This document shows positions 5,564 through 43,200 of a DNA stretch of 64,000 nt, in pieces (the stretch's first letter is position 1; the number at the start of each line of letters is the position of its first letter). Both the position numbers and the translations under genes were made by a program. Origin of the DNA: Psammoneis japonica. Lineage: Eukaryota. The stretch is taken from contig QPGO01000009.1 in the NCBI GenBank assembly GCA_008632985.1, positions 434,001 through 498,000 on the forward strand, in the 5' to 3' direction. The notes below the pieces were generated by a model, which searched no databases, was not told where the DNA came from, and was given only the letters and a program-made list of their open reading frames with translations.

Positions 5564-5659
5564 CTCCAGCGGGTTGTTGCCGGAACCAAAGCAGGCATCC
5601 AATGAAGACGCACAGTGGCGGACAAGGCATCCAATGAACACATCAAGGCCCAGTCGTTA

Positions 5660-7135
5660 AAGTCCAATGAAGTCTCCATCAGTTAAAAAGAAAGGGACGT
5701 GCTGCTCAAGCATCTGTTTCATCTGTTGTTCCATGTGAGAATGGCGATTGTGGATGCAACGACCATTGCAATGAAACCCATCCCTGACACGACGCATTTC
5801 AAGAACGTTCTCCACGGTGCAATCTTGGGATCTAGACGATTGTGAATCTGCGGCGGAAAGACCGAGATGGGACATCCCAACATGCTTCCCATGAGACTCA
5901 CCACCATGTCCAGTGAGTTTATGGTGCATGCCGCGACAATTGCAAGCAAACACACACACACACAGCCGATTGAAAGTTGCGTGTTGACAGCAATGTCAGC
6001 ACACGCCTCTTGATCCAATTGTCAGAAGACAGGCTGGGATGCCGGTGTTTTGCTCTGCGACAGTCATGGAATGACAAGCAGTTTGAAGAGCGGGGAAGTT
6101 TTGGAGTGGAATGGTGCAAATGACCACAAGGCAGTGTGCCAGTTGCACAGAGGTTGCCAAGCAGCCGGTTGGAAGACTGACTGTCAGGACAGTTCGAACT
6201 GAGTCTCCAAAACCCGTCCAGTGCACCATGCCGAAGAAGGCTTCAAAGCCAATGATGCAAAGAACAACCCTCTCACAAACATCAGGAAACTTGGCACGCA
6301 CTTCCTCACCGTGGACAGCTTCTTGTGAAGGAACCAGCAGCGGCAATGGAGCCTTCAAACAGCAAAACCTGCACACAAGACACAAACAAGCATGCAAGCA
6401 TCATCGAAAAATGCAAGATTGAATTTCCGCGAAATGTCCTGGCCAACATGCTGAGTCCTGCACTTTGTCTTACACTTGTTCCGATGAATGAATGCCATTG
6501 GTCCCGAGCAACAAGGACTTAGACTGGTCGCGCTCTTGCAAATGTCTTCATGCCAGACTGGCTCTCCTCCCGCGGTTTGGCGTGCAGCACGACCCAAGCA
6601 AATCAGCAATCCACACAGTGTCAACGCACTGGCAAGCAAGTTGGCAGGTGTCAGCTTTCAAACATCATGAATCCACGACAGGGGCATTTAAATCAGCACC
6701 ATGTCAATCAACCACCATCGTGCGCTCCAGTCCAACCCAATGAGCAGGAGAAAGGACGAGTGCAAGTTTTGCGGGACAAAAATCAAATGCGCCAAACACA
6801 CTCCCGATTGCATCAAGGCAATTCCCAGCTTGACCAAGCTCTCGCCGGTTGGTCCCAGAGCACGATGTGTCAATTCAGGACAGGTCAGCATGACAACCTT
6901 GGCACAAGATGATGGCACCGACCCACAGTCGGCATTTTTGTTTTTGGGTTGCAGCGGCTCTTCCTCGTGTTTGAGAATGGGCTTGACGGAATGCTCCTTC
7001 TTGTTTTCGAGAGCCCAACTCTTGAACAAGCAATCCGAGGAAAACAAAAACACGACAGCAGTCAAGGCCAAGATAGGAAGCGCAGTGGATAGCTAGAGCA
7101 ACGGCGTGCGGTAGATACAAAATGGCAGCCGGATT
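5660..7135 (-). pseudogene. Amino-acid transporter (Aa_trans / SLC36-38-like) pseudogene
   Basis: Family-typical segments AILYLPHA, LT(C)PELT(H)RALG..GESLV, GVCLA(H)LIFVPQNL, FGDSVRTVLT and VVSLMGS.LGCP. Frameshifts and internal TGA stops. Confidence 0.75.
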
Positions 7136-10839: not shown

Positions 10840-11208
10840 ATGGTTGTAGTGTTGATGATGTAGCGTTTAAGAAATCAGATTGGGTATTTTACTGTTAGCT
10901 TTTAAAAGGTTTGGTTGTGTTTGGAAAGCTTCTGCCTCTGGTTTTGTAAGGTTTGACATTTTCACACCAACACACTAGCACTCTACTCTCGTCCGAGAGA
11001 GTTGCGCTTCTGGCAATCATCGCCCGTAAATGAGTCGTTAAATAGGCGCTTCATGATGTCATATTTTCCATCGTGTTCAGACTCAACAGAAACTGTCTTA
11101 GCCTGTCGTAGTGTCCATCTACTGGCTAGAAAGCAGCTGCTCGCTAACAGCTAGAGACTCTATACCGTAGACGGGAGGAAATAACCTCACTGCAGCAAAC
11201 TCTGTCTG

Positions 11209-11370
11209 GCTGTCACAGAGCACGGGTCAAGCTTGGTGAGCCTCATTCGTGATGTGAGCTCAGAGCTCAAGAAGCCTGATTTGCCAGTTGTTGTTGGCGG
11301 ATTGGGGGTGGACAGCATTGATTCAGGTGGCAAGAGCAAGCCAAAAGCCTTCATTTCCGAAGCATTCAAC
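11209..11370 (+). pseudogene. Fragment resembling the C-terminal part of a sialate O-acetylesterase (SASA/DUF303) domain
   Basis: E(H)GSSLVSLIRDVSSELKKPDLPVVVGGLG resembles EYxxNLxxLIxDxRxxLxxPxLPxVxGELG. Confidence 0.4.
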
Positions 11371-11399
11371 AAACTGCCGCAGTCATGGACAAGTTTAAA

Positions 11400-14300: not shown

Positions 14301-17300
14301 GTGCTGGCCAGCACATGTCCTGTTGTGCTGGCTTGCTCCCCCTTGTGCCCTGTTTCTGGTTTTTTGCCAGCAACTGATGATGCCCGCCAGCAAATTTGTT
14401 CCCCCTGCCAGCAGCTTCAATTTCTCATCCCCCTTGCCAGCAACATGCATCCCTCATCTGGATCACAGTTTTCCTGTCCCCCCACCTGCAATGAGTTTTG
14501 CAGCCTCCTGCCTCATTCCCCCCTCACCTGCAAATGATGAGCACTGTTGCTGCCTCCACCATGAGCAACAACGATGATCTGTCTGACATCGTGAGCCCCT
14601 GTGCACAGGTTCTAAGGTCATGTTGTGTCATGGACAACCACAAATGCACCACATGAGATGACTGGTGTCTTTTATTAAAATGCCCTCTTTGCCACAAATG
14701 TGCTGTTCTTTCAACACTTGCAAAATGTTGACCAAGTGAGTCCTTGCCAAAAATTGTCAAACATGCTTTTGGTGTGTGGTGCAATCCACCATGCCCTTTG
14801 CCAAGGCCTTGTCCAAACAGCAGAGCATGTCCATCAGCAGACTGGCATTCTCTGCAGACAGCATTGACATTTGCGTGTGCACCACACAACAACCCCGGCA
14901 GCAACAACAACAAGACTTGCTCCAGAGAGGGATGCTCCAGACTGACATCTAAAAGAGAAATCCACAAACAAACCAAACTCAATTGTGAGTCAAGGTGCAC
15001 TGCCCTCAGCTTTCTCACTGTGGTGGGTCCCTGGTGCAGGATGCTGCACTGCCAAACAAAGCTGCTGGTTGTCCATTTTCAACGGAACAGGTTCCCAGCG
15101 CAGCTTTAAAACTCAAACAACTTGAGAACCAGTGCAAATGCTCCAAGCCAGAGATGGATGTCTTGGATGAGCTGGTCTCACCCTGGTGTTGGTGATCATG
15201 ACAAGATGGATGGAGGGAAGGGGGGGACTCATCATTGCAATTGTGTTGTGTGGGTTCTTTCATTGGTTGTCTTGCTGTGACCCACTTGCACAACATTGTC
15301 CTTTCTGCTTGCAGTTGCATGCCAACTCTGAGTGACCTTGAGTGCTGTTCTCTTGAGCAGCAATGATGTCAGCAAGCCATGACTGTTTGTGCAAGTGATG
15401 CTTGGACAGCAGTGTCATGAGATGGCTGCTGAAACAGCATCTGAAGTCTGACAGAAATGTCTCCAATCCTTGTTGGAAGTGATGTCATGTGAGCTCATCC
15501 AGTTCCTGCACGTGGCTTGTTTTCTGAGTTGCAGGTGTGCTGCATTGTTGTGACATTTCCACACACCTTGGGAGATGTTGAGAAGCTGCTTGATCCAATG
15601 CCACACCCATTTGCTCCTGTTTTGCATGAGGATTTCAGTCAACAGTGCTTGTCTTGAAGTTGCAACCACTCTTTTGCAATCCATCCTTCAGGCAATCCAT
15701 CCTTTGGGCAATCCATCCAACCCAATGGCGTGTTTTGGCTGGATGGTGCATCAGAGGATCAGGCTGTCAAGGGGATCATGCATGGCTGGTGGATTCCAGA
15801 GTTGTTCCTCCATGCCTGAAGGTGATGCTGAGCTTCATCAGAGAGGCTGCAAGCCATGTTGTTTTTGTTGATCCACGGACATGTTTGCAGAGCAATTTGT
15901 TCCAGCGATTGGTGGCTTCAGGGCACACAAGGATGTGAGTTGTTGCAATGAAAGGAGGGTCCAATGTGCTGCACCTGAAAGTGCCATCTCACTGTTGCTC
16001 ACTGCTGCCCCTCTTTTCCTTTGGGGCATTGGCACACTCTGCAATGTGACAATGAAGGTGGCAATCAAACACCTGATGGAGAGCAGCCTCTTGGCTCTCA
16101 GCGGCAGTCTCAATGTTCAAACACCACATGAACAAGAAAAATTGCCAAGGTGCTGCTGCCAAGGACAACCTCAGCAGTTGCTCACAATGCTCAGAGATGA
16201 GGGCAACCTTGTCTGCTGGCACAGATGGCTGATTAGAAAGACAAACAAATTTGCCATGACAGAGTGACCCAAAGGATTCAATCAAAACACAGCAGACCTT
16301 GTGGATGCTTGCCACAACAGGCACAGCACCACTCTGAATCACTTCTTGAGTGGGCAGGTTCTTTTTCAATCATTCCAACTTGGCAGTGGTTGCAGCCAAA
16401 ATCCATGCAGTTGCTGTTCCATGATGCCTGCGTGTGTGTCTTCACCACAATGACGGCTCCTTGTGGCATCCAGTGTCTTTTTAAAAGGCCTTTTTGGGAT
16501 TTTGTTGTCTTCTGCATTTTTTGATCCTTTCCTCCTGAATCAAGAGAAGCACACCAGTGCAACAAGTGTCCACACTGGCGACATTCATGAATGAATGAAT
16601 GAATGAAGAAGTCATCAATGGCACAACATCTCAAGTCAGAATGTGAAATGCCATGGCATTGTGCGTGCAAAATCCAGGTGTTGAAAGAATGACATTGCCA
16701 GAGCTTTGATTTTTAAAACGCTGTCCCCACCAAGCAATCTCTGCAGCACTGACTCTGTCCAATTGCCCCAACTTCCAAACTGCAAATGCTGCATCCACTC
16801 ATGTGGAGATTTTGGTCATGAGGACATTGCAGAAAATGAGGGGCTTGACTGCACTCAAGAGAAGTGAACCTCAAAGATCAGGCTGCCAAGAATGGATGGA
16901 ACAAAGATGATGGAACCCCATTGATCCCTGATGATCCAACAGAGCCAGAAGGGAGTTGCTGATTCTGCACTCCATGGACTTCCACACCAGATCCATGCCA
17001 CAGAATTTTCCTTCTTTCAAAAATGTTTGGCCTCATCAACAGTTGACACACATGCCCACTGCACTGCCATTTCACCAAATCAAATGACCAAACAAATTTC
17101 CCACCCCCACTGCTGACACCAAGCAAACTGATTCCAACATGCTGCCAAAAAAGATGAGAGAAAACAGCAGACACACAACTCTTCTCACCAGCCTGAGTCA
17201 TCGCATCATGCCAGCTGCAGTGCAGTTGTGCCATGCACATCATCTCAGCCACACTCATTGAGGAATGTGCATTCTTTCTGAACATGCCCCACTGCAAAAG

Positions 17301-18350
17301 GAGCTCATGCAGGGTGTGCAATGCTTCCAGACAATGGACGTGCATGTGTTGTTGTGGGAGGTCATCACATGGGCACTTCCAATGGCAAAGCCTCTGTCAT
17401 TGCCGTGGCTGTGCTTGACACACCACAATGGGTGAGCACAACAACCACAGTCAGCAGCGCACCTCTGAAAATTGAGGCAACACTGGCAAACAACATGAGG
17501 AGGGTCATCATGACATGGATTTGGCTTGTGAAACAGAGCTTTGTGGATGGCAGTCATGCTCACACATCCAACCAGCCAGCTCTGCTGGAGAATCACTTTT
17601 TGGTCAGCCTGGTGACCAAAATGAGCATGTGCACCCTTGGGCAGAACATCAGGGATGAACAGAAGTTTTGATGACAGAGATGCAGCAGCACTCTGAGATC
17701 CACCAAAACCTCCAGCATCAGGTGTCTCAGATGCAGCACAGTTGTTGTTCAGTGCATGGATCAAATCAGAGATGTTGTTGAGCCGACATCTCCTCAGAAA
17801 ATGCTCAAGGGGTCTCAGGAGCATGGGCTGGTGGGTGCACAGCATTGGAGAACTCCTTCCAGCCCCTGAATGTCCAATGCACAGTGGTGGGGGCAAAGAT
17901 GAGATGAGAGATGCCAACAGCAAGAACCACTTTGGCGAATTGAGCTTGAGGGGCTTCTCTTCAATTTTGTGGCCCATCATCTGTCGGGGGACCCCAAAAC
18001 AATGATGCAACTGGTGGTGCATCAGCAGGGTCAAGGGTCTCAGACATGATCAGTTTGCAAAGGATGTGTTCCCAAAGCAGGTCAACAGTGTGGTGCTGGG
18101 GGGTCTTGCTGCGGATGATCAGTCAGTTTGTGAAGGACACGAGGATCCTGAAGCAGGCCAACAATGTTGTCCTTGGCCCTTGCATGCTTTGAATCTTCAA
18201 AAATTGATCCAAATCAACAACGGCTCCATTGCAAAGGCTGTTGAAGTGCTTTGTGACTTCATGATTGCGGCACGTTGGGCAAAGACAACATCAGAAATCT
18301 CCTGGATGGAGTCAAAACGGGCTTCTTCTTGGGGGTGAAAGTTGTCATGG
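11400..18350 (-). mobile_element. Highly degenerate transposable element, possibly a non-LTR retrotransposon
   Basis: Minus-strand VKPLIFCNVLMTKIS (~16850) and MPQGAVI (~16465) resemble RT motifs in the expected order. Otherwise unrecognisable. Confidence 0.35.
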
Positions 18351-19399
18351 TTGATGAGGTGCACAGAATTTTCGATCATGCTCCGTAAAAACCTGGTGCT
18401 GGTCTACAGAGCCTGTGCACCAATGAAAAAATCAATTTCTGGATGAAAGTGGTGGCCAGCTCGCTCAGCTCGCAAGCCAAGCAAACCACAGCGGAAGTTG
18501 CAAAACAGAAGAACAATGACCTGATGAGGCCATGACCTGTCAGAGCACCGATGGTTTGAGCAACAAGCTGAAGAGCTCCCCACAAACTGGTGACAGTGGA
18601 CAACACGTGTGCCCAGCAAGCAAAGAGTGGGAGAAGATCTGAGAAAGATCGATCATGCATCGGCATCTCGTCCATCTAGAATCGTCTGGCCGTCATCCAC
18701 ACACAGTCTAACCTTGTACAGTAAGGTCAGCTGAGAGATCCTAAAACATGAAATTCAAAATCGTGGACTTCCAAGAGAACTCTATGAAGTCCTGGACGCA
18801 TGGACAAGATCGATTTCAAGAACGAGAGAAAGGTGGTCTTTACGGAAAGCGCAAGCTGGCGGGTGCGCTCTCGGCTTCAAACATGAACCGCTTTTCGACA
18901 AAGAAGAACGGATCGTGAAATATGAAACGCCTGAGGATTTTGTCAATCTTCTACGAGACGAGCTACAGCAAAGTTGAACAAGAGGAAGCAGCTTCTAATA
19001 GGAAAGGATGCGACAGGAACAAAAGATCCGTAACAGACTGGCATTCTCGCCGATCTTCAGGACTGTGGCTTCGACTTGATGACAAAGGAAGAGAAGCCGA
19101 TAGTAGCAAGGACAACGGGTTCACAGAAGATGATGTAACCCGGGGGGTCGATTGGTTTCAGTGCACCCTCGCTCCGTGATCAATTTCAATCCGTCAATTT
19201 CAATCCAACGATTGGAATCATCTTTTCACTTTTATTTATCATCGCCATCATAAGAAAACAGTGTTGAATCATACATTATCTTGTGCATTTGTGGCTGTCT
19301 GCTGTGCAGTCGAATGACTTTTCGTGTTGCGCATACGTTCTTTCTTGGGTCGTGCTTGTCGCCGACTGCGACGTCAAATAAGCAGAAGTGGCATTATGT

Positions 19400-23040: not shown

Positions 23041-26000
23041 TTATGAAACGTGGCTCACAATGTATCACTTTTTGCCATCACGCTTTCAAGCATCTCCTTA
23101 GCTTGCAATGGAGTACAACCATTTTTCTTCATGTTGACACTCAACGTTTCCCAACTTGGAGAGTATCGATCATAACAACAAGACGGAGAAACCTTGTCCA
23201 AGTGGTCAGAGCAACCTTCACTTATACGAAAAGCCTCAATTATTTCCACGGATCTCTGCCCCTTCTCCTCTGCCGTAAAGCTGATTGCGTACAAAGAGTC
23301 CTGACCTCTCCATCAACTGTCCTGATAGATAAAAGACGGATCCAAGTTTCGTCGCTCATTGGCGCTAAGAGATCAAGGTTGGTGCAATTTCGTGTAGTCT
23401 TCGGAGGACCTTCAAATCATACAATATCAAATGATTCTCAAAAACCTGAGATACGTCAAAGAGCCACGGCAGCGATTGGCGGGTGAGCTCCTCTGGCTTC
23501 TGTTGTTGGGCTTGCCAGCTTCCATTATCGGTCCCATGAAATGAAACACTCCAAACCTTTACATATCAGGGACAGATTCTCATAAGACCGTGTTCAGCTA
23601 ATATGTCCATTTTCAATTTGACGCTTGGGTACTTTCAGCACCTACTAGTTCTCATTTGGGCATGGCGTGTTTCCCTCTTCGTCATCATTCGCTTCGAGAG
23701 ACTTGCCTCTTCGACGATACTCCTGAGCAATCGCCAGACCCAAGGCCATTTTTCTTTTTATCGTCTCAGTTGGAACAAAACGTCTTGCTTATAGAGGGTG
23801 CTACTAGTGAACGTCGCAAGCCGCAACCACGCGTTTGTCTATGGGAAATCTAATGAATTCCAGGTGCACCGCAAGCTTCTCACCGATATACCTTGACATT
23901 CCGTTCCCCACATGCCCATTGGTGAAGAACAAAATGTGCACTTGCGGAAGATTATTTCGTATCATTTTGGACGACCCTATCGACGTCTTTTCCTCTTGCA
24001 ATATCTTCAGGAAAAAGAAACATGGAATGGTACGACAAGTAATAAAGAGCAGCTTGCGGTGCGATGCTACGACGAGGGTGCTTTCACAATCAATGTTTGG
24101 ATCATTGTAGTCCAAGTGTGTATCTGGTGAAGGGCATCATTGTAAGGCTGCTCTATCTTGTACAACACTCGCATCATTGGCACTGTGAGCCGTTCTGCTT
24201 CTTCCTGATGGGCGGGATGGACCAAGAGAGGCCAATCATTGATGCAGAACAGACATCCCAAGTCCCACAACATAGTGGGATCAGGGAGAGAATGACAAAG
24301 ATGTGACTCTTCACTGTTCGCATTGCCGTTCCGCCTCCATTTCAAAGCCGGGTGCATGCTTTTTGTGGTTCGAAGCAGCGATCCTTTTTTCAGGGCATCC
24401 TTTTCCATTCCTGTTTTGATTTTTATAGTCTCGAGCACCGACTTGGAGAAGAGTTGAGGGTGTGACTGATCGATCCATGTGATGCCAAGCCCACTCACGC
24501 AACTTCCCAAAGGACGGAAAACTCCCGAAAAATTTCCTCACCCCCACAAACCCTTTTTGCCAGCCTTTTTTGGTCCCGTGCAAACCAAAACATGACGCCT
24601 AGATGCATGTGTGACAATGCCATGTTGGAGGCTCCACTTCACAAGTGGAAACCCACATGATTCCTTGATTGTCAGTCACAGTCAATGTGCAGCATCAATT
24701 GGTTTCCTTTGTTTGAACTTTCCATCTTGCAAGCACTGGAAATGTTGATTCTCAGTTGCAATGTCTGGCTCCAGTCAAATGCATGGCAACACACATTGTT
24801 CATTTTTTAAACTGAGCACAGAGTTAAAGAGCCCATGGCAAATAGAAGGGAACAGCAGAAGGAGGCATGGAAGCAGCTGCAGCAGCAGAGGAGCAGAAAG
24901 GCCACAGAACACAGTGCACGGGGCATTTTGCAGAAGGATTGGGAGACAAGAAGTCAGTGTGGAGAGAGGAGGTGAAGTGAAGGGCATGCATGGAAAAATG
25001 GCAAATGAGGTTGCAGCCAAGCTTTTGAACAGCCCAACAGGGAGGAGAAGCAGAGCGGTGTGCTGCCAAAGATGTCACACTGGAGAGGCGATCATTCCAG
25101 GCAAAATCAGCAGAAAGAAGAGGGGCAGACGGAGGTGTCAGGGTGCAGAGAAAGGCAGAGTGGGAAGCATCAGAGTTGCAAAGGCCAGAGGAGGAGGACC
25201 ATGGGTGCTTCAGATGGGAGCAGGCAGAGGAGAGCAAAGAGCTGAAGAGAAGTTAATGGCAAAAGCAAAAGCCACCAAGGTGGTCAATGGCAAAGGGAAG
25301 AAAGAAGATGCTGTCATTGTTGAGCAAAGCAGCAAAGGATCTGTCAGCAAAAGATGCAGAAGGTCCAAGAAACTTCAGCCTCCCACTTCATTGGTGTGCT
25401 GTGCCTCAGTTGAAATGGGAGAAGAGGGAGCAGGCAGACCAGGAGGAGGATGAGAAGGAGCTGGGGGAATGGTGCACATTGACAGCAGTGCAACAGCAGT
25501 GGGAGGGAGCCAAAAGAGAAGCTGGGGTTGCATGGAAATGCCAACATCAGCAGGGCAGAGAAGCAGATGGGCGGGAAGCAGATTTGCACGCTCAAGGTGA
25601 GCACCCTTTTGGAGGAATGGCAGAGCTTGGCAAAGGGCCCAAAGGTCTGGGACACAATGAACAGGGTGTCCCAGAGGCCACTGGAGAGTTTGGATTGTTT
25701 GTGGCCCCATTGGCCAGAGAAGGCATGATTGCCACACAAGTGCTGAGGATGGCACAACCACAGGGACAGAGATTGTGGCAAGGGAAGGAGGAAGGACTGG
25801 GAGATGAGTTTGCACTGGGTGGCAACAACAATGCAGGTGCATTGGAGAGGCAAGACAGGAGCTCTGGAAGTGGCAGGAGAAGAGAAGGAGTGAAGAGGGG
25901 GAGGCAGTTGGTGGAAACAGGGGGAGAGAAGGCAGGGAATCTGCACATTAGAAGGAGAACCAGCTGGGGCGGCAGCAACCACTTGCTGCTGGTGAACATG

Positions 26001-26939
26001 ACATGGATGGCATGCCAAGCTGGGGACTGGGGAAAGCATCAGACTTGACAAGAGCAGCCAAGAGGACAAAGTGGAAAGGGAGGAGGCAGAAGCAAGAGCG
26101 GGAGCACAGTGGCAGAACATTGTGCATGCAGAGGCTCAGGGTTGAACAGGAAGGGCTGCATGGAATGCACCTTCATTTGGAACCAAGTCTGGGAAAAAGT
26201 TGATGCTGCACCCGCAACACATGGGAGAGGCTGCATCTCAGCAAACGCTGGATCCAACTAAAGATTCTGCCAACTGACACCCGGGATTTGTTCTTCTGCT
26301 GGAACTGCCTCCAACTCTTCCTGGTCTTTCTGTTTTGTTTTTCTTTGAAGTCTTCCAGCATCTTTGCCACTCCTCCCCACTCACACCCCCCAAATCTTGC
26401 TCAAGTCTGTGCACAACTTTGAGAGCACCCCGGATCTTGTTCAGTTTGTGCACAACTTCAAGAGCCACAAGCATCTTGGCAAACTTCTTGTTTTGACACT
26501 TGCCAGAGCTGCTGATGACTGTGTTGAGAAAGCTGCTGTCTTTGGCAAGAAAGGCAGGAGCTGGAAAGCGAGCCCCCCACAACAGAAGTGACTGGGCCTT
26601 TTTGTGCTCCCCCCTGGTTTGCACTCGTGATGAGGTTGTGAGAATTGGCTGAGACAGCTCAACTCATCCAGCAAGGAGACTGCCGTCAACGGGCCTTTTC
26701 TTGTGCACAAGAGCTGCTGCCAGCTGGCTGGAGCAGCCACCAGCTAGCTGGCAGCTAGCTGGCAGAGACGCGCACTGTGGACGAGCTTGCTCGCAGGTCA
26801 AAAGTGCTTGATGCATTGTTTGAAAATGTCGAACACCTCAAAATGCTTGCTCCGGCATTAATTTGACAATCATGAATCATCGAACTCACAATTTTACAAG
26901 CTGCTTGTGCTGCTGTGAATGACGACAACAACGATGCAT

Positions 26940-28673
26940 TCGCCCAGGGCATTTCTTTTGGGTTGCTTGTCACTGCCAGCTTCCTTTGTTCCAGTGGCAC
27001 AGCAAAAGAAGTTCATTCAATTGAAGGCATCAGCAGTGGCTCAATTGTTGGAAACAATGACAATGCCAAGAATCAAGAACTTGATGATGTTGCCACCGAA
27101 TGTCATCGCCACGAGGACAGGAACATGAGTCGTTTGGTTTCCAGTCATCATTTGTCAGCACCATCACACAAGCTCACTCCCGTGAGGGGGCACAGCAATT
27201 TTGGTGGAGAACTGTTGGATGGAAAGCTGCATTTCATGTGCAGGAAGCATGCTCACACGAAGATGCATGCGTGTGATTGTTTGACTCAAAAAGCTGAAAT
27301 CGTCGAGGGTGTAGAGAGGAGTCCATGTTGTGGTGTTCTTCCTGAATCACTGATGGCAATGAATGGAAAACTGCACTTTGTCACTCCTGGGAATAGAGGG
27401 GCCCAGCTTTGGGTGCATGATCCCATTTGAGACACAACGCAAAAGCTTGCAAATTCTGTGCACCAGCATGTCGCATCCACCACAACACCAGTGGACGGAA
27501 AGCTCTGCTTTATTCACTCAAAGAAGCATGATGTGGCTGCGTGTGACCCTGAGACTAACTCGATTCAAAGAGTGTTTTGGCCCATGAAACTTGACAGTCC
27601 CCACCCCTGCAGGAGTTTGACGTCAAAAGATGGAAAATTGCATCTCCAAGGCCATGGCAATCTCCTTGTGCATGACATGGAGAAGACCAAAACTAAGAAG
27701 GTTAAACTGGAGTCTTCGACAATGACTCCCTTTGATGGAAAGTTTTGCTTCTTAAACGCAAGAAGAAATTTTGGGGGGAACAGATGTTTGACATTCGGGA
27801 GCAAGATCAAAGAGTGACTCCACCAGGGTGCTCGCCAGCTACAAGTCAGTGCAAAAACTTGCAGCATCAGGTGGCAAGTTGTGTTTCATTGCCCAAGACA
27901 AGCAAGAAAACTTGCTTTTCGCATGCGATCCCATCGCAGACACACTTGGTGTGATGTCGATTCCTGACAGGAAGCTGTGTTGTCTTTCAGCCAAGCATGA
28001 TGACAAGTTGCTTTTCAAAGGCATGAATTCCACTTGGCTTTACCACACAACCAACGAGACCAATGGTGGCAATGCTGATGGAGATGGTGTGTCAGACGAC
28101 ATTGACAACTGCTCGCTTGTTCCCAATGCTGATCAAATCAACTCTGATGGCAACGGCACAGGGGATGCTTGCACTGGCTGTCCATTCCTCTGCACTGTGA
28201 AACCTGGTGCCAACATGGGTGTTTTGAAGGTTGATGCATCACCAGGTCAATGCAAAGATTTTTCTTGCCCTGCGCACTTGTCACAAAAGTGTGCCAATCC
28301 CAAATGAGGGCTTTCTCTTCTTGTGACCAACTGTGAAGGCAACGGCACGTTGGTTTCAGATGCTCTGTTGGCAGGTGGACGCAAACCTGAGCTGGTGCGG
28401 ATTCTGAAGTTTGATGATGCGGGCTCAACACTGGTGGACACGGGCTTTGAAGGTGGGAAAATGAGACAAGGTGCAACAAATGAGCAACGTGGCAAGTGGA
28501 AGCATGATGTTGATCTGAAGGATCTTGAAGGTGCTGGGTGTTGCGCAGCCAAATTCAAGGTCTGTCAGCCTGACGGATGGGTCGTGCATGCAAAATCAGC
28601 ATTTGAGACAAGACAGCAAGCTCATCATGAGGCAGAGAGAAAGAATGCACTTTTGATTGCAACAGCTTTCTAA
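26940..28673 (+). pseudogene. Secreted beta-propeller (ELWxxDGT-like repeats) + thrombospondin type-3 repeat protein pseudogene
   Basis: Six GK(L/F)[H/C](F/L) repeats, PESLMAMNGKLHF...QLWVHDP, and [32 protein letters not shown]. Frameshifts present. Confidence 0.65.
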
Positions 28674-29289
28674 ACACAAAACTTGACACAACAGGTCCAA
28701 CAATGAAATCATTGAACAAAACATCAGAGTTTCCTGGACTGCCAAGCTGCCTTTTCTCAATTTTCTTGTCCAAAAGTCCGTGAATTTATTCTGATGCATC
28801 GCATTCAAGTGGAAGTTGTTTTCTCATTCGTTCATTGGCGACGGAGGCACTTTGGATGCATCAATGGGACTCAGCAGATTGAAAAATCCAATTTCCAAAA
28901 GACAGCCCCACACACTTTTCGCTCCGCCCTTGCTGGCTGCTTCAACGGGATCATCGGGAAACACCTTGAGATTGAATCCATGCTCAGTTCAATCCAAAAA
29001 TTGCACAATTTCAAGAGCCGCCACCCATGAAGCTTGGTCATGCCTGTTTGTCCCAGCTGTCCACAACCATGGATGGGTGCAGAGCATCAATGCACGAGTG
29101 CAATTGCAGTCACAATTCCATGGGGTTCTGTTTTGTGGGGCAGTTTTTTGGTGGTTGGGTGCAGTTGACAGTGTTGTCAACCCACGTTCTGGTCCAGAAC
29201 AGCCTTCGCCACTTCAACAGCAGTCAGCAATTGTCATTTAAAGTCTGCATCCTTGGCCTGCGCTGATTCCAGGGACCGTGTGAACCATC

Positions 29290-30150
29290 TGGTTAGATGA
29301 GGGAAATGGGGAGTTGGTCTGTTAAATTGGTGCGCACACTCTTCCTCAATTCTTCCATCCAAAACACAATTCTCTGCAAGTGTTGACTCCGATGTTGGCG
29401 AGCTTGCTGTTGCATGCAATGTCTCCACATGTCCCACGCTGTGTTCCACAGTTGTTCAATCAGGCCGGACAGCCATCGGAGACCCGTGTTGTGACAGTCC
29501 AAAGATTTGCAGCAGGCTTGTTGCATCTCAACCAGCCCACCACGAAACCCCCCCTGAAAAGTGAGCCAGGGCCCGCTTCCATTTGTTCATCCAACAGAGC
29601 CTGCACCTGTTCATTGTCTGACATGCATGCACCTGTGACTCCCCTGTGGCACCATTGGTCTAGAAACTGCACTGTTGCTTTCTGGAGGTCCGGTTCTGTT
29701 TGTTGCTTCTGCAGCCATCTGTCCAATTCCTCTGTCTTTTTCCTCCACAGTGCTCGGGCTTGCAACTTGGGGCAGCAGGCTGCATGATCAATGCTCCTTT
29801 CAGGGTCTTCACAATGAGAGCATGCCGGTGCAAGGACTTTCTTCCAATGTTCCATGTTCTTGATGACGGAGACAAAGATGGTTGCCCATTTCGGTTCCCA
29901 CAATCATCTGAACATCGGGGTTTGCTGCACGGCTTTCCCCAGTGCTTCCCAGTCTGTTTCTGCATGCACTGGACTTGAGCAAAGCTTCTTTGACCAGTGT
30001 TGACGAGCAGCTGGTCCACAAATGTGGTCAAGCAGTCTTGGCCTGTCCCAGCACAGTGGCACTTCCCTTTGGAGTCTCACCGCCATCGCAGCTGTTCTGG
30101 CATTTTGCAATGATCCAATTCCAGCTCAGCCTTTAAGGAGGGTTGTCCCC
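29290..30150 (-). mobile_element. Diatom non-LTR (LINE) retrotransposon relic, C-terminal region
   Basis: DWEALGKA, ACSHCEDPERSIDHAACCP (CCHC-like), and WLSGLIEQLWNTAWDMWRH. Confidence 0.75.
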
Positions 30151-31318
30151 GCATTCATCCTGGAATTGCCATGGCATTTGAACAAGGATGTTTGTGGTGT
30201 TTATTTTTGAATGCAAAAATTGTTTAGTGTCACCCCTGATCACGCAAAACACAGTGGTCGCCCACAATCACACGGTGTGCATGTGACCTTTGAACAACAA
30301 CAAACACAAAACAGACAAGAGTTGGCAGACAGACCACCTCCATCACAGACTTGTGGCTTGATGTTTTCACCATGGTGAAGCACAGTGAAATTCAGGACAA
30401 ATCATGCAAATCACGAACTGTTCGGCCAAATTTGAGCTAAAAAAAGTGACAAATGACCCCCCCTTGACGCTTCCAACACATGCTCTTGCGAGGAGATCAT
30501 TTCAACATTCAGTTGCTCCATTGGAGCAACTGATTTGCAGTCACAACCTGGCATGATGCTGACTGATCTTAGATCGCACGCCTTGCACAGGTCCTGCAAG
30601 CAACAAAGCATTCCATAAACCCCCCCCCCCCCCAGGCTCACTGCGGCAGGCCGCAATGTCCTCCTCTCTTCCTGGTGTCTGATTCTCTCCCCTGTGTTGG
30701 TGAGAGTGTCCAAAACTTGGCAACAGGATCATTGCCACTGTTGCAAGAGATTCTTTGAATGGCACCCATCTGTTGCACTGGCAGCAGCACCGGCTGCATG
30801 CCCTGAAGAAGTGGCTCAATCGGTGGTGCCAAGTTGCATGGAATGTGGCACCATTTGAACTCCTGGTTTGTTGGTTCTGGAGGCAGTGTCTCACATGTTC
30901 CTGTGTGAGCAATTCGTTGTTCTGCTCCTTCCACTTGAGAGGGCAATGCCTCATCAGACAGTGAGCTGACCACAGCAGCAAAGTGACAAAACCATTTTCA
31001 TTGTCTGTTCTTTGTCCAGTTTGTTGTGCACTTGGTCTTCTCTTTCCAAGCATGTCCACACGTGCTCAGCTTCAGCAGCCCATTTTCCCAGTGGTCTTCA
31101 GAGTTTGAGGTTTGGGTTTTGACCAGGGAAAAGACAACACGTCACAAGAGCCTCCTGCCACAGTCTCCAGCTCATGGTTGATGGGAAGCAAGCTTTTGGC
31201 CATTCACGTGGGCTGGTGCATTTTTTGTTTCCTGTCCCAGCGGCCCTCTAAAATGTGGCAGCCGTCTCCTGAAGTTACATCCGAGATGCACAGAGCATTG
31301 ACCTGCAGGCAGCACAGG

Positions 31319-31600
31319 TCAATTCTTTGAAGATGCTCCCCTCTGCAGCCGTTGGATGAGATCACATCCATGAGAAAGGAATCTTGCTCTCATTGCAATG
31401 GAATTGGTTTCTGCGGTGAGACCAAACACATGCCACACAAGTGGCAGAACTCCCACAGCAATTTTGCCCAGGCATTGGCAGCCAGTGGTGCCATTTTCTT
31501 GCAATTTTGCTGGTGCATCTGCCCCGGGGGGTTCCCATTTCCAGTTGCATGTTTGATGGGTTCCAGCCCCAGGTGGGAGTCCTTGTGACATTTCACCTGT
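31319..31600 (-). mobile_element. LINE reverse-transcriptase core relic
   Basis: SQGLPPGAG resembles QGxxQGNG, and a degenerate DDxDLIQ-like segment follows. Confidence 0.4.
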
Positions 31601-32599
31601 AGAATTCTGCGTGCGAGCTCTGCAGTGAATTTGTCAAGCAATGAAAATGTGAATGATCACCAACAGAAAAAGAGGCAATTTTTACGAACGTGTCTCCTCC
31701 TCCACACTTGGAGCACATCATTGGCAGTTTGCCTGGGTGCATTCCACAGACATTAAAGAACACGCCCAGCACATTTTCACTCTCACAAATGTTGAAAATA
31801 GAGAGCCTTTGGCTTTGAAAAACAGGGAGCATGAAACAATTTTGCAGAATGTCACATGCAGAAACGTGCACATGCAACATGCAACACGATAAAAAAAAAC
31901 TGTTGATGTCACAGCTCAGCAGTGCAAGGTCCCACCCAGAGCTGGAGCACATCATTTTTGTGCACAACAGGAGCTGACTGTTGTCCTGTCATCGAGGGAG
32001 AGTCGGCTTCCTAAAGGCATGCTTCCAGTTTCAGCCAGGCTTGGGGTTTCAGGGGGGGAGATTTTTCAACAAAATGGGGAATCTCCTAGATGAAAAAGCG
32101 GGGGCCCAGATTTTGGAAAGCACTGAGAAGAGATGATCAAATGAACCTAAAAAGCTCCAACTGTGTTGGCACCTGGACTGACCTGTCATTGCATGCCAGG
32201 AACAGAGACAGCCTCATCTTGTCCAAAAAATTCTTATTTGGTTTTCATTGAACAAGTTCCCCAGCAGAGAAAACACACATTGCTTGAGCTTCATCACCCA
32301 CACCAATGGGGATGATTGCACGTGGGCATGGGAGGAGCTGCAGGTGGAAGCGGTGGCTTGCCACCAGATGGTTCATCTGCACAACAGGCGTGTCTTCCGC
32401 CATCACATCTTTTTTGTTGTCCCTTGTTGTCCCTTGTTGTCTCTTGTCTGTGTGCCATGTCAGTGCTCACTGGTGCAGTGCCGGTGCCACCATGCTTGCC
32501 ACTTGCTGTTCGATGGTGCACCGTGCGCTGCGCGTGCGATGCAGCACTCACAACCCCCGTGTCTCCAGACAAAATAAACTGCCCCCCCCTGCTCCCCCC

Positions 32600-33210
32600 T
32601 AAAACCCTGAGCCCAGTTTCAGCAAGCCCTGAAGAACATGGATTTCTGGTGCTCCAAGTCCATTGCATTTTTTTGGTGCAAACATGCCTTCCTGGGGAAT
32701 GATCTCGGGTGTCCAAGGGCCTGCAGTGCCGCCTCGAACAGAGGCTTCGGTGCAATCTTGCAGGCTTTTTATGTGAGGGAGGTTGCAGCCAGAGGGCATT
32801 CAATGAACTGCGCTGCTCCTCCGGTGAGGGAGATCCATGACTCCATTCCATTTGGGTGCCCGCGTCTCACCCGATCTGCCGCCACTTCTCCACCTTGGCC
32901 ATTGATGCCTCTCCACTTGTCGCTCAGTGCATCCGTTCATGGCAACCCATGCTCCCAGTGTTTCCTCCGCTTCCCACTCCTCCAGCCATCTGATGGTGGT
33001 TCGGTTGCCTTCATGGTCGAGCAGCACGGCAATGTCGCCAGGTGTCTCAGCTGCTGTTGGCAAGATTGAGCCCACACTCAAACTCCATTTCGAGCCCCTT
33101 TGTCTTTGGATGGGTCCGCACAATGGGAGGATTGCAGGCCTTCCTCATTGGCAAAAGATGGCGTCCGACACTTGGGCTGTTCCAGGAGGACAAAGATGAT
33201 GGCCTGAAGC
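32600..33210 (-). mobile_element. LINE relic, post-RT region
   Basis: LEEWEAEETLGAWVAMNG and FAPKKCNGLGAPEIHVLQGLLKL match diatom LINE ORF2 segments. Confidence 0.65.
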
Positions 33211-33612
33211 AGCGAGGGAGAGCGATGGTTTTTGTTTACGGTGCGGCCGGCGCCGCGAGAGAAAGTGAGAGCTCTTTTGGATCATTCAAATGCGAGGGTG
33301 CACGGGAGATTTCGCGCATTCCGGGTGATGATTCGGTGTTGGCCGCCCGCCACACAGGTTCGTTGTCGTTACCGCATGCATGTAAGGGTCCTGCTGTAGA
33401 AATTAGTATGACATACTCAGCAATAGAAACGATTGAAAATGCGAAGAGTGGCGACGAGAGGAGCCAATCAGAAGTCGTCAAGTCATCGTGCGTACGTTTC
33501 CATACACCACGTACTTACGTGAACTGTACGGCCTTTTCAGTACAAAGTACATTTTTGTGTTGTCCTGCCTCTTGGCTGCAAAGCCAAAGCGACGCAAGCA
33601 ACTCCCACCACA

Positions 33613-37006: not shown

Positions 37007-37059
37007 GGTGATGCTGAAAAAGTGGCAATTTTTTCATATTCGTGGCCGGTTTAAAGGAA

Positions 37060-39000
37060 AAGGGAAAAAGGAGGGATTCCGACAATTGAACACACACAAT
37101 TTGACCATGCAACCAGGGCCAGAGTTGCACTGGCTTCTTTTGGTCCAGGGTGGTTGCTGCAGGTGCAAAGAGTGGGGCACATTGCAGCTGCAGGAGGGCA
37201 ACAATGTGACTCTGAGTGTGTGCTGCCAAGCTGAGAAGCCCAGCTTGGTTGTGAGCCAAGCCCTGCCAGGCCCTGCTGCCCTGGCTCCACAGCTGCTCCT
37301 CCCAGTGTGTGCATCAATTGTTGAAGGAGCACCACATTGACTCAAAGGCTGTGTTTGGGTGGAACAGAGAGGGAAAGAATGTTGTCCTCTGACTGGTGCT
37401 TGCTTCAGACCCCGCATCATGAGCACAAGCTCCTCTTGAGAAATGAGTGAGAGACACTTCACACAGTCATTTTTGGTGCCTCTCTTTGGCTGCCCACTTG
37501 GCATTGCCAACAAACTCTTGAACCCAACCTCACTCACAATTTCTTCACCCTTCAACCACAAAAGCAGGCTCAACTTTTTGTTGGCTTTTTTGTGGCCAGG
37601 GATCACTGTTGCAGGCACAAATGGTGGGCACATGCCACGTGGCTCTGCTTGGCAACAATGTGATGCCAAGCAAGCATGTGCCACCCACCAAGGAGCCAAG
37701 CAGCCCAGCTCAGCTTTGAATGGAGCTCCAGGACAGCAGCCAGCTCTCAGTGCTTCCAGCATGGCTTGCTTGCTCAAGCTGTGCTGCATTCACCCCACAA
37801 TGCTCTGTGTTGTGGTGGCTTGTTGCAAGCCATGAGGAGTCTGCAGTTGGCCAGGGGCCCATTTTGTAAAGGCCACACATGTTGTGTGAGGGGCCAGGTG
37901 CAGAGATCTGCAACAATGGCTTTGTGGCTGTTGGCGCCAAGTTGGCATTTGATTGGGAGCCAGTGCTGAGGGGCTGTGAAGTGGCTGTGCTGGGGTTGGG
38001 AGCCCAGCCAGCTCACACTCTCTTGTTGTCACAAATTGCTGTCACAGCTGTCTTTGCATTGCAACCAGCCAGGTGCAGTTGGTCCCAAGCTGGCACTTGA
38101 TTTGGAGTGACTGCCAAGGAACTGTGAAGTGTGGGGTTGGGCAGTCCAGCCAGCTCACACTCTTTGCTGACAGCAGAAAGTGCTGTCGCACCTGTCTTTG
38201 CATTGTGGTGCCAGCCAGGCACACATGGCCAGAGCAGCCTTGGCACATCCTGCTGACAAAACTGGCAAAACAGCAACTCTTGTGGTTGGGCCAGCATGCA
38301 GGCAGTCTGGGCACACCCCTGGGAAGTCAAACAGGAAGGAGGGCTCAGCATTGCCGCCAGTGCCAGAAACATGCTCAGCAGCTTGTCTTGAGAGAGATTC
38401 GAGCCCACACAGCCCCGAGCTGGGTGTCTTGGCTGGCAGGTTGGAAAGCATTCTTGAGCACAGTCTGGTGTGTGGGTGGCACTGTCACCAAGAGAGCTGC
38501 TCTGCAGAGGAAGAGGGAAACAGGCAACAGCATTTTGCAAGAACTGTTTTTTTTTCAATTGTTGGGTGGGATGGGGCAGCATCTGGACTTTGACGGAGCA
38601 TTTGGCGGACAAAGCTTGAGCACAGAGAGCTGTCCACTCAAGCTCCACAAGTGGCACATTCCAAAGGTGACACCACACATGGGCCATTTGTTCATGCATC
38701 AACATGCATCAAGCTGCAAGTCTCACAAAAAACCACCACCAACCTTTCAACCAACCACCATGGAGGAGAGAACAGGGCAAGAGGTTCGAAACAAGAGTGA
38801 TTCGTTGACTCTCTTCTTGTTTCATGCATTCAAGAGCTTCTTGTCCTTCTTGAACATTTGTTGTGCATTGTTGTCTCTTTTAATTCAAGTGCAAAGAGGA
38901 ATCACTTTTCTTGTTTCTTTCTCTTGAGGGGTTGTTGGTTGTTGAGTGATGCAATTTTTGTTGTCACATTTTTGGAAATGTTGGCAAACCCGATCACTGG
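37060..39000. other. TpA- and CpG-depleted hypermutated domain 4 (unidentified relic with internal repeats)
   Basis: Almost no TA or CG. ggggttggg..cagccagctcacactct is repeated at ~37993 and ~38133. Confidence 0.75.
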
Positions 39001-39457
39001 CTTGATTGTCAACCCATTCACCATTTTAAGTCTCCATGGCATAAAATGCCATAAGCCCAGAGCCCTCAATTGTTTCATCAAACGCAGTGCTTTGCACACG
39101 TCCAACATCAACTCGACTCAGTTGAAATCCCAATTTGTGGGCGATGAAAAATCACGAATGTCAAACAAATGGCTACTTTCGACACCAACATCCCCGAGTT
39201 CAATCCAAATGTGACGGTATGCCTTACAGCTTATGACCATGACACATACAAGCATGCTTTATTGTTGTCATCGCGTACTCGTATTGAAAATGCCGATAGA
39301 TCAAAGTTTACGAAAAGGATGGAATACAAATTCATTTGTGTATTCATTAGTGGCATTGGAATAATGACATTAAGGGCAGAAGGGATCTAAAATCCTTATT
39401 CATCATTGACATTTCTGTATTGCTCAGAATTTGAAATCTGACCACTGCCGTTAAGCA

Positions 39458-40222: not shown

Positions 40223-43200
40223 CGCGACCGATCTGTTTGGGGGGCAACCGAGCACCCGTGTGATTCTGCTTTTCGCCACCAATCTCTTTGCATGACAATC
40301 GAGTACCTGGAGCGGTTTGAAGAAGGGAAATTTTACAATTTGCTGACATCCTTCTTGCAAGAGGCAAGATTCGGGGTGGAAGAGTGCCGCTCTAGCCACC
40401 AATGATGCCACTGCTTGTGGATCTTCACAAGATCACGGAGAATCCGACATCGTCGAGCGGACCCACCTCTCTGTCCCCAGTGTTCAAAATGCACTGTGTG
40501 GCTTTTATTGCACACTTTTTGAAAATACGAGCATTGATGTTGTGGTCTAGATGGCGCGGCTGGAGGAGCCCTGTGGCAAGTTTGTTGCATTGTGGGAACG
40601 GTTCTCTCTGCCTTGGACAAGGAAGAATCAGCAGATGACGTTTTATGACAAATGCGGTCGCATCGTTTGCCTGTTACTTTGGTGAGAAGAGACTGTTGCA
40701 GCATGTTTTTTTTTGGTTGGATGTTGATGCGATCGCCTTTGCAGCATTGCCAAATGGTTTCCTTTGGGTCAAGACGAGTTTTGGCGAGGAAGTCACTCAA
40801 CTTGCGAGGTTGATGCATGAGGTTATCTTGAGACATCTCTAGACAGACTGTGTGCACACTCTCTGACAAGACATTGCCAGCAGAAAACAACTGCAGCTGC
40901 CAAACAATGATTCAAGAACATTGCCCAAAAGCATCCGATGCCATGGCAGCTGCTGACACCACTTGTCTGCTGCAATCTTTGTCAGTTTTTTTCTTGTCAC
41001 TAGAGATCCCATTGAAAAAAGATCTTTTACAACACAAAAGACAGACAAGAGCTGTTTTAGGACAAGTGCGATCTTGAAGCAGAAGGAGCTAGAACAAAGA
41101 CAAATCGTGTCGCAGGCTCCATCCCTGAACTCACAGTGCCGTGGACCTCCTTCTACATGGAAATCTGTTTGCACGGGACCACTAGCAGTCTCTTTCCCAA
41201 TAGAACAGCTCGGTGAAGATCGATGCAGCATTCCACGAGATGGAAGATCCGAAAGACATCAAGAAAAAATAACATGCAGTGCATGCATGCTCCCAAAAAA
41301 TAAAATGTTCGAAATCTACGTCTGATGTGCGTCCGCAAAGATCTGATGACTAACCAACGCGCGACCACACAACAACAGAATCAAATCAAAGAACGAGAAA
41401 CTTCACCATGACGCTCGCGATCGATTTGCCGCTCGTTTTCGGAAGATTCGGCATGCCAGTACCGTTTCCGACATTTTTGAAAATATCTGATCCCACTAGA
41501 GGATAAGTTGTCGAAACCTGCCAGGCACCGAGAGCACACGAGTCGTGGAAGACCGAGGACTGAGGCTCCGTGGATTTTACGTGCTTCTGGTACACGAACA
41601 ATCCGATGCTGAATTTCCGCTCGCTCTCGATTCGCTCATAATTCTGACAATCAACTCAAACAACACGGCAGTAATGGAGGAGTTGATTGTGTTTCTCTTT
41701 TGACCATGGCGCTCTTTGCAGTGGCCATGGGCGTTCTGCTTGCTGCCGGCTTTTGTCGTTGCAGAGTAAGGTACGTGCGTTCTTATCGTGATCGTGTATC
41801 GTGTTGTTCCTTTTTCTTCTGTATTTCATCCACTCAACTTGCTCTCGCCTTCTTGTACGTACACAGAGACAGAATTATCATTTCACGGTGGTTGTGGGCA
41901 AGAAGCGGATACGTTGAGGTGCTCGTGTCTAGGTTGCGGCACGGCGGTCTGGGATCGGATCTTCAAGACGAGGCGATGTACTGATTGTGGTTTGGGATTG
42001 GATTCACCAAGAAGGACGTTTTGAAAAGTACAGCAGCAATGCGAGGCTACCCATTAGGATTGAGCAGACGTGGCACTCAGTCTCCCAACAACGTTGGAAT
42101 AAGAGACGGCCTCTTGTCAGTTGCTCTACCCGAAGCAGTAGCAAAATCTCGTACTTGACTTGTTGTGGCTTTTGCTGCCATGGGGCGGCGTGAACGTGGA
42201 AGCGGGGTTACTCATTAGGACTTGGATAGACGTGGCACTCAGTCTCGCAACCCGAGACGGCCTCTTGTCAATTATCCTGACTCGAAGCAGTAACGCGAAC
42301 TCGCACACGAATTCACAGTACGGAATGTTAGATTGCGGGGCCACCTATTAGGGCATGAGTAGATGTGAAGGCTTCAGCCTCTCGTCAATTATTCATAGTC
42401 ACGAAGCAGTGGCACAACAACTCGCACACATATCCATTGGTTGGGAGAAGAACGAATTTTGCCGCAAAGGCAAGGTGGACGTTAGACGGGGCTACCCAAT
42501 AGGGCATCGGCGGACCGGGCAATCAGCCTTTACCGATAGTCACGAAGCAGTAGCGCAACACTCGCCAACGTCTTCACCAAGGGGGGCATTACGTCAGTCG
42601 TGGGGTTGCCTAGTAGGGCTACCTGTGTGGTAGTCTCGAAGCAGTAGCTAAAACTCACCAGATGCCCCCACCTGTTCCACCAACAAGTCCTTCCGAAGAG
42701 GTGTTTATGACATCCGGTGACCATGTCAGACCATATGAAGGCTAGTACTCGGAATGTTGATGACACAGTCGGTCCAAGAACTTTGCAATCTATCAGAGAA
42801 ATGCCACCATTCGGTTCGCTTTTACAGCTCAAGAATTCAGGCTCGCAGTATTGTAAGCCGAGGCCGTTTCGGACGTCATCTTGAAACAGAGAGGCAACAT
42901 TGACGAAAGAGAATTCATTGACCACACTCTAATTCAGGCTCGCATTGCTATCATGTAAGTCGTGTCGCTTCGGAAGTCAAGCTTGTTGTTGAAACATTGA
43001 CGGAAGAGAATAGAGCATTCGTTGGGAGCAATCATTTTACAAGGCTCCCACGAAAAAATACAAATCATACCTCTCTAGAGAGACAATAAAAACACGTCTC
43101 AAATAAAAGGAATAGAAAACAGAGTTCCTAAAACGTCCGCTTGCAATTCTTTACAATTTGCAATACCTTAGTACTACTTCTAGCTCGCTCATGCGCATTT

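Follow-up and report, generated by a model that had tools for sequence, protein, structure and literature searches.

How did a tandem-repeat gene come to carry only histidine and cysteine codons at a position where its family would be expected to carry tyrosine? This question is raised by the remnant of a propeller-repeat gene in a 64-kb window, that is, the whole 64,000-nt stretch of Psammoneis japonica contig QPGO01000009.1 (positions 434,001 to 498,000) that was analyzed in this study. A first-pass annotation of the window had noticed six copies of the repeat with His or Cys codons at one and the same site, had taken GKLYF (with TAY) as the normal state, and had proposed that A>G changes on either strand produced all six. 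The analyses described below indicated that the six codons are probably former TAY codons of a dead single-copy gene, which lies within a region of DNA-level TpA>TpG/CpA hypermutation. The loss of TpA is regional, affects resident DNA on both strands alike, took place after duplication of the affected sequences, and is accompanied by CpG decay in most of the depleted blocks.

The six codons were found where they had been annotated by direct reading of the window sequence at the x of the motif G-K-L/F-x-F/L, and a seventh, degenerate copy that was absent from the first-pass annotation was also recognized. The gene and its codons are as follows.

26915..28307 (+): ELWxxDGT-repeat (Kelch-like propeller) pseudogene with seven recognizable copies of the unit and a thrombospondin type 3 repeat
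27230..27232 (+): copy 1, Tyr position, CAT (His), preceded by G
27374..27376 (+): copy 2, Tyr position, CAC (His), preceded by G
27506..27508 (+): copy 3, Tyr position, TGC (Cys), preceded by C
27641..27643 (+): copy 4, Tyr position, CAT (His), preceded by G
27746..27748 (+): copy 5, Tyr position, TGC (Cys), preceded by T
27882..27884 (+): copy 6, Tyr position, TGT (Cys), frame 0, preceded by G
27978..27980 (+): copy 7, degenerate (DRKLCC), TGT (Cys)

The codon-bearing repeats are spaced 105–144 nt apart; the first five codons lie in frame 2, and the sixth and seventh lie in frame 0, after a frameshift. The His to Cys ratio is 3:3 over six copies and 3:4 with the seventh copy included, a split that fits A>G changes on either strand.

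The ancestral residue was then read from homologs. P0001, a 225-aa read-through translation of the pseudogene in which TGA is written as X, matched 548 proteins at E ≤ 0.001 in a HMMER search, and a phmmer comparison of P0001 with the 150 best of these 548 homologs aligned 138 of them in 337 segments, which provided 509 repeat cells. The residues at the five x positions were Y 386, F 101, L 8, I 4, V 3, A 3, C 2 and T 2, with neither His nor Arg in any cell, and in P0002, the best intact homolog, the Tyr of GxLYF is encoded by TAT 23 times and by TAC twice. These comparisons well support Tyr as the ancestral residue at GKLxF. Phe (TTY), the second most frequent residue, was dismissed as ancestor because neither CAY nor TGY can be reached from TTY by single transitions. 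Since His or Cys occupies six of six (seven of seven) copies in the window but only two Cys and no His occur among the 509 homolog cells, the codons do not reflect variation within the family, and on the same sequence comparison chance is excluded as their cause. All seven polarized sites of the column are TAY>CAY or TAY>TGY, namely A:T>G:C transitions. The homologs thus bore out the annotated TAY ancestor, its change on either strand and the dismissal of Arg (CGY). Consistently, P0001 contains no Tyr, 18 His and 10 Cys, whereas its homologs contain 3.5% Tyr, 1.14% His and 0.39% Cys.

A second Tyr-rich column of the repeat was inspected as well.

27272, 27416, 27542, 27671 and 27924 (+): second Tyr-rich column (consensus ELWvyDp), TGT, CAT, TGT, CAT and TGC, respectively
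28041..28043 (+): sole surviving Tyr codon of the second Tyr-rich column, TAC

This column echoes the pattern of the first one, and appears supportive but ambiguous, as several residues are common in the family at this column (Y 112, S 116, H 40 and T 39 of 336).

The state of the gene was assessed next to its relatives. Its tandem repeats match the ELWxxDGT family motif, its reading frame is not intact, and copies 4 and 5 of the repeat are truncated. The lesions and the additional repeat are listed below.

27428..27430 (+): in-frame TGA inside repeat 2
27815..27828 (+): second in-frame TGA (27815–27817), after which the frame shifts from 2 to 0 near 27820
28074..28136 (+): thrombospondin type 3 (calcium-binding) repeat behind the propeller units

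The real open reading frames (ORFs) of the window terminate in TGA or TAG; the genetic code is therefore standard, with TGA as a stop codon, which makes the propeller gene a dead one. Translation with the Mesodinium code (table 29) was tried and rejected, as it did not lengthen the genes sensibly. In X1, a public sequencing run used in contig form, the pseudogene has a depth of 60–67, compared with 57–60 for unique DNA, showing that it is single-copy. An alternative frame 0 at the head of the pseudogene (26919–27128, +) looks like a signal peptide, with a hydrophobic stretch after its start, which would mean that the frame shifted once more before 27008.

By sequence similarity, the pseudogene is closest to bacterial proteins. 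The best match, P0002, is a 3026-aa protein encoded by a Hyphomicrobiales genome bin (E 2.4e-71, 23 matched stretches, 40% identity); 'ELWxxDGT repeat protein' is the JGI/IMG name of two homolog clusters (P0003 and P0008), and tblastn placed homologs on 27008–27781 in frame 2. Among the other homologs are proteins with RTX repeats, a Por secretion tail or a dockerin, so the homologs appear to be bacterial secreted proteins. The window copy shares the repeat of these ELWxxDGT proteins, but differs from them in being dead and in residing in a eukaryotic genome. A hidden Markov model of the repeat, with a unit of ~45 aa and the consensus ...nGkLYFaadgtnGrELWvyDp..., matched its best window copy at 2.3e-20. 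Neither Pfam nor NCBIfam provided a model that matched the repeat, and a sequence search against solved structures matched only the RTX part of the homolog, leaving its repeat part unmatched. Alignment-free structure prediction for a stretch of 331 residues of P0002 gave an all-beta fold (predicted local distance difference test score 64.8, predicted template-modeling score 0.64), and a Foldseek search with this model found six-bladed Kelch propellers as the best matches (E ~1e-14, template-modeling score ~0.5), so that the label 'propeller repeat' seems reasonable with moderate confidence. The thrombospondin type 3 repeat was matched by Pfam TSP_3 at 5.4e-05, just under the cut-off, and by NCBIfam throspo3_MtsC at 3.7e-10 as a local match.

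The dinucleotide composition of the window was then examined. Six sharply bounded TpA-poor blocks were found, which together comprise 32,171 bp, half of the 64-kb window (o/e, observed-to-expected ratio; no strand applies).

1..7073: TpA-poor block with mild CG loss (CG o/e 0.54–0.89)
11183..18676: block poor in TpA and CpG (TA o/e 0–0.08 over 12001–18000, 0.21–0.25 in the edge windows; CpG ~0.1)
24162..33369: block holding the pseudogene (per kb, TA o/e 0.04–0.13, CG o/e 0.09–0.44, TG/CA o/e 1.6–1.8)
37053..39026: depleted block that is a high-copy repeat (summed depth 3400–6100 vs. ~58)
45985..48915: TpA-poor block with near-normal CG (CG o/e 0.79 over 46–48 kb, 0.61 in the last kb)
60510..64000: block poor in TpA and CpG, running off the window

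The block edges are sharp to ~100 bp; at the pseudogene block, the flanking DNA is rich in TA, up to 24161 on the left and from 33370 on the right. Compared with the DNA outside, the blocks contain 0.41% vs. 4.07% TA, 2.31% vs. 5.26% CG and 21.24% vs. 14.71% CA+TG, so that a combined TA and CG loss of 6.61 percentage points is balanced by a CA+TG gain of 6.53 points. This corresponds to ~1,180 of ~1,310 expected TA and ~950 of ~1,690 expected CG being gone. AA, AG and GA shifted by at most 0.7 points, and AT, TC, TT, CC, GG and GC by 0.8–1.5 points. Therefore, the blocks reflect the loss of TpA to TpG/CpA plus ordinary CpG decay, and not a general A>G process. On this point the first-pass annotation, which had proposed A>G as such, was right about the Tyr ancestor and the involvement of either strand, but too broad, since the change is specific to TpA and leaves AA, GA and AG unchanged. 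Similarly, its claim that the His/Cys pattern separates the mutation from CpG decay holds by way of the homolog column, but not by local sequence, as CpG decay is active in the same block.

The TpA and CpG decays are partly independent, because the blocks 1–7073 and 45985–48915 are TpA-free yet mostly have a CG o/e of 0.54–0.89. In blocks that have lost TA but kept CG, GC content is 2–5 points higher. Within the 64-kb window, over which confinement was judged, seven stretches without an ORF of at least 80 aa in the normal parts (2,904 bp) have a TA o/e of 0.82 and a CG o/e of 1.07; non-ORF DNA in the normal parts thus keeps TA, and therefore unconstrained DNA beside genes is spared and the process is regional. 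All credible genes (RNase II, HEAT, PH, PPR of 755 aa, aminotransferase of 526 aa, and LRR) lie in the normal parts, and the Atlas clusters nearest to the PPR protein are mostly diatom. The aminotransferase (−) and LRR (+) frames overlap by ~250 bp on opposite strands at 58931–59181, and the LRR frame probably begins with non-coding sequence.

Two gene fragments were recognized in the block 1..7073: a Kelch-repeat fragment at 5228–5560 (+; Pfam 8.5e-16) without any Tyr, and an amino-acid-transporter (Aa_trans) fragment at 5999–6400 (−; 6e-06) with no Tyr and with 14 Cys in 134 aa. Both look host-like and are probably further dead genes; when the Kelch fragment was aligned with Kelch proteins of solved structure, no clean Tyr column emerged. 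The domain scan covered 283 ORFs, comprising 143 of which about half lie in blocks (not counted exactly) and 140 that all lie in blocks; the latter, table-11 ORFs of 70–109 aa, gave no credible domain match. Rfam and tRNA scans of the window produced no matches. The block 1..7073 also holds a 90-bp tandem repeat at 4340–4559 (2.5 copies, 95% matches) that is rich in T- and A-runs. A TA-rich, self-complementary 134-bp tandem repeat lies at 45564–45810 (inverted matches 45598–45810), separated by ~175 bp (45811–45984) from the left edge of the block 45985..48915.

The depletion also reshaped the reading frames of the blocks. TAA plus TAG occur at 3.1 per kb of strand in the blocks vs. 18.2 outside, while TGA occurs at 22.8 vs. 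18.5. As every Tyr codon as well as TAA and TAG contains TpA, loss of this dinucleotide would wipe out Tyr, leave TGA as the sole common stop and create spurious ORFs. Many long overlapping ORFs are present in the blocks because TAA and TAG contain TpA and nearly vanish; 75 overlapping ORFs of at least 40 aa were found in 5.5 kb.

Duplicated sequences were used to follow the decay in place. A 3-kb pair spans a block edge.

47933–50907 (no strand): duplicated segment, copy A, whose left part 47933–48915 lies in the block 45985..48915
40225..43192 (no strand): duplicated segment, copy B, 88.8% identical to 47933–50907, with its left ~1 kb partly TpA-depleted

In both copies the left ~1 kb is TpA-poor and the right 2 kb is normal, and the switch occurs at roughly the same homologous place (~200 bp apart). 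Between the depleted parts (~985 bp), 15 CA/TG double differences, 12 TA vs. TG/CA sites and 18 CG-involving sites were counted, whereas no CA/TG double difference was found in the normal part (1,933 aligned bases), where divergence is threefold slower than in the depleted part. The CA/TG differences alternate without runs. Such a difference needs two adjacent changes unless both copies resolved one TA or CG ancestor differently, and TA would be the likelier ancestor of most of them because CG is only mildly depleted there (o/e 0.79; 0.61 over 48–49 kb). The normal part of the duplicate contains ORFs without a Pfam match. In addition, in a tandem array of 169-bp units at 1232–1955 (3.7 copies, 81% matches), nine columns show only CA or TG among four copies, and the copies differ largely by CA/TG swaps. 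These sequence comparisons showed that the duplicated copies decayed independently after duplication.

The X1 contigs provided an independent view of the same DNA. X1 contains 71% of the sampled words of 24500–33000 and was compared with the window over 19001–39000, with 40 of the 155 differences listed. Its depth is alike over normal and depleted DNA (~51–61), apart from the high-copy repeats at 30340–32340 (summed depth 1,284–16,088) and 37010–39000 (3,433–6,118), compared with ~58 for unique DNA. These two repeats have many internal joints, and no transposon domain was recognized in them. X1 carries the same TpA-poor sequence, which confirms that the sequence is real. Differences between X1 and the window amounted to 18/2,313, 8/1,277, 7/1,005 and 5/533 in depleted DNA (6.3–9.4 per kb), and to 6/4,347, 5/1,821, 2/719 and 0/799 in normal DNA (0–2.8 per kb). 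The 18 differences of 25420–27732, all of them listed, comprise six at CG, three at TA, four in two CA/TG doubles and five others. Accordingly, 3 of the 14 TA sites and 6 of the 41 CG sites present in either sequence differ over this interval, where the direction of change is not readable, suggesting that the remaining TA and CG may still be highly mutable.

Survival of TA depended on its neighbors. The 133 TA left in the blocks and the 1,290 outside were counted by tetranucleotide context, with reverse complements pooled.

TTAA: 29 in blocks, 43 outside
CTAA: 27 in blocks, 125 outside
CTAG: 14 in blocks, 78 outside
ATAA: 20 in blocks, 166 outside
GTAA: 18 in blocks, 164 outside
ATAG: 12 in blocks, 136 outside
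CTAC: 9 in blocks, 197 outside
GTAC: 3 in blocks, 100 outside
ATAC: 1 in blocks, 190 outside
ATAT: 0 in blocks, 91 outside

A hand-made additive model, in which the rate on each strand is set by the 3′ neighbor of the edited A (T > C > G > A), reproduces this ranking, suggesting that a pyrimidine may be preferred 3′ of the edited A. The Tyr codon's own 3′ base is always a pyrimidine, and therefore Cys is favored, while His needs editing of the other strand and is thus allowed in the model only with a purine before the codon. The strand choice at the Tyr codons fits this model: G before the codon gave three His and two Cys, and C or T gave no His and two Cys, although these numbers are small.

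Several other processes might account for these data. Firstly, the target may be the thymine of TpA. A TET/JBP-type enzyme would make 5-hydroxymethyluracil (5hmU), or a derivative of it, at TpA in silenced repeats, and its mispairing with G would produce T>C. As T>C at TpA is A>G on the other strand, sequence alone cannot separate a modified thymine from a deaminase. According to the available text of one report, 5hmU preferentially replaces T in TA and TC in C. cohnii, and in A. carterae both 5hmU and 5-methylcytosine are enriched at repeats (PMC11572971). In the blocks TC drops from 7.24% to 6.25% and CC climbs from 4.48% to 5.71%, a shift that keeps this explanation alive; however, the loss of TC is small beside the ~90% loss of TA. 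High 5hmU is known from dinoflagellates, whereas the window has no match to a dinoflagellate spliced-leader motif and has genes on both strands. Moreover, base-resolution mapping of 5hmU in B. minutum, in the available text, showed no sequence preference (PMC11071213). A modified thymine was thus considered unlikely.

Secondly, TpA might decay neutrally throughout the genome, with the normal parts keeping TA only through selection on coding sequence. All six credible genes do lie in the normal parts, and the slower divergence of the normal part of the duplicate would be expected as well. However, the seven non-ORF stretches keep TA, CG loss varies widely among blocks at equal TA loss, and the block edges are sharp, which together make neutral decay very unlikely.

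Thirdly, His and Cys could have arisen from Arg CGY codons, as classic methyl-C transitions convert CGY to CAY or TGY and CpG decay is active in the pseudogene block (CG o/e 0.09–0.44). The absence of Arg from all 509 homolog cells and the survival of a TAC codon at 28041 in the second Tyr-rich column leave this origin with scarcely any probability. Equally improbable is an origin in RNA, whereby double-stranded RNA would have been edited by an ADAR-type enzyme, reverse-transcribed and inserted into the genome. One edited strand would change in one direction, but CA, CA, TG, CA, TG, TG and TG alternate within 750 bp of single-copy DNA, and the two genomic copies of the duplicate decayed independently in place. 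ADAR prefers G as the 3′ neighbor, unlike the T > C > G > A order found here. In its favor, ADAR usually favors U before the edited A, according to the available preprint text (bioRxiv 10.64898/2026.01.13.699255). Finally, that the codons are native to a functional gene, or that TA loss is an assembly or base-calling artefact, drew no supporting point and is barely credible, given the two in-frame TGA and the frameshift where real ORFs stop at TGA, the homolog cells with no His and two Cys among 509, the same TA-poor sequence in X1 contigs that differ at only 18/2,313 positions, and the depletion of CG, which separate miscalling of each TA strand would instead create.

Regional TpA>TpG/CpA hypermutation of DNA was thus compared with known systems. 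A literature search found TpA-directed hypermutation in one 2026 preprint on one alga only. As described in its available text, 230 of 231 new mutations in integrated giant-virus and virophage regions of Bigelowiella natans mutation-accumulation lines were A>G or T>C, all of them on TpA at ~6e-7 per site per generation; 124 clusters of TpA-poor, CpA+TpG-rich windows were found in the ~95-Mb genome, and Mettrop et al. proposed an ADAT2-like DNA adenine deaminase (bioRxiv 10.64898/2026.01.13.699255). On that text, B. natans and the window are alike in that only TpA is changed, to TpG or CpA by strand and regionally, in that the long-term trace consists of clustered 1-kb windows with little TpA and much CpA+TpG, and in that affected genes are degraded and unannotatable. 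They differ in several respects. The active region of nucleocytoplasmic large DNA virus (NCLDV) origin in B. natans is 1.8-fold TpA-poor, whereas the window blocks are ~10-fold poor and occupy half of 64 kb; CpG decay is coupled in most window blocks, while it is not reported for B. natans in the available preprint text. The B. natans targets are viral, whereas those of the window comprise a bacterial-type pseudogene present in single copy, fragments of host-type genes, and high-copy repeats, and no viral gene was recognizable in the ORFs scanned. B. natans also has 8 introns per gene on average in the available text of its source (PMC13746701), whereas the PPR and aminotransferase ORFs of the window are uninterrupted. 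From its sequence, the window looks like another, far more saturated case of TpA hypermutation, coupled with CpG decay, of a kind that is itself known.

Three other systems share part of this signature. CpG decay by 5-methylcytosine deamination likewise turns a palindromic dinucleotide into TG/CA in silenced DNA, and is active in the same blocks, but its compositional direction is opposite (G:C>A:T), and it can explain neither the TA loss nor the Tyr column. Fungal repeat-induced point mutation (RIP) is likewise a defence-like, regional, dinucleotide-specific burst of transitions that kills genes; however, it converts CpA to TpA, enriches TA and needs duplicated sequence. It was ruled out here, with TA depleted 10-fold and a single-copy pseudogene affected. 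APOBEC (C>U on DNA) and ADAR (A>I on RNA) also produce clustered transitions with a neighbor preference, but APOBEC gives G>A/C>T and ADAR acts on RNA and is strand-uniform per copy, whereas in the window both strands of resident DNA are changed.

A mechanism may be proposed as follows. The blocks would represent silenced chromatin that contains repeats, dead genes and possibly foreign DNA, and would be marked for cytosine methylation as well as for an activity, presumably enzymatic, that targets TpA as a palindrome. Through an A:T>G:C transition on either strand, TpA would become TpG or CpA. TadA and ADAT2 act on A34 of tRNA, which is preceded by U33. By analogy, the most likely agent might be a TadA/ADAT2-type adenine deaminase acting on DNA, which would turn A into inosine that is copied as G; this assignment is tentative.

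Several points weigh against this interpretation. The deaminase idea is borrowed by analogy from the hypothesis of the B. natans preprint and from the U33-A34 context of TadA/ADAT2. TC is down and CC, GG and GC are up by ~1 point in the blocks, so that the exchange of TA and CG for CA and TG does not account for every compositional shift. The DNA against which the blocks are set in the context ratios is mostly coding, and these ratios mix TA decay with TA re-creation; CA/TG doubles can derive from CG as well as from TA. Of the 15 listed X1 differences in normal DNA, 4 are of the CA>TA or TG>TA type. Lastly, the block ORFs scanned yielded no Pfam match to a viral or transposon domain.

TpA-directed hypermutation has practical consequences for annotation. 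Long false ORFs arise in all six frames of such blocks, so gene finders would over-call, and Tyr-free, His/Cys-rich 'proteins' may be annotated from TpA-depleted DNA. Conversely, a conserved Tyr can serve as a sentinel, an idea of the first-pass annotation that provides a simple polarization of TpA decay in any dead gene. Beyond the available text of the preprint, the window adds a ranking of tetranucleotide contexts that is comparable with candidate enzymes, the independent decay of duplicates up to roughly the same internal boundary, and the coupling with CpG loss. A second case, probably from another lineage, would suggest that a counterpart of RIP built on A:T>G:C changes is widespread. 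TpA-directed DNA editing as a genome defence may thus, as one possibility, not be peculiar to one chlorarachniophyte, but may also be at work, almost to saturation and together with cytosine methylation, in an unrelated eukaryote with few introns, where its intrinsic T-A-pyrimidine preference would point to a TadA/ADAT-like DNA adenine deaminase and where it would silence single-copy acquired genes as well as repeats.

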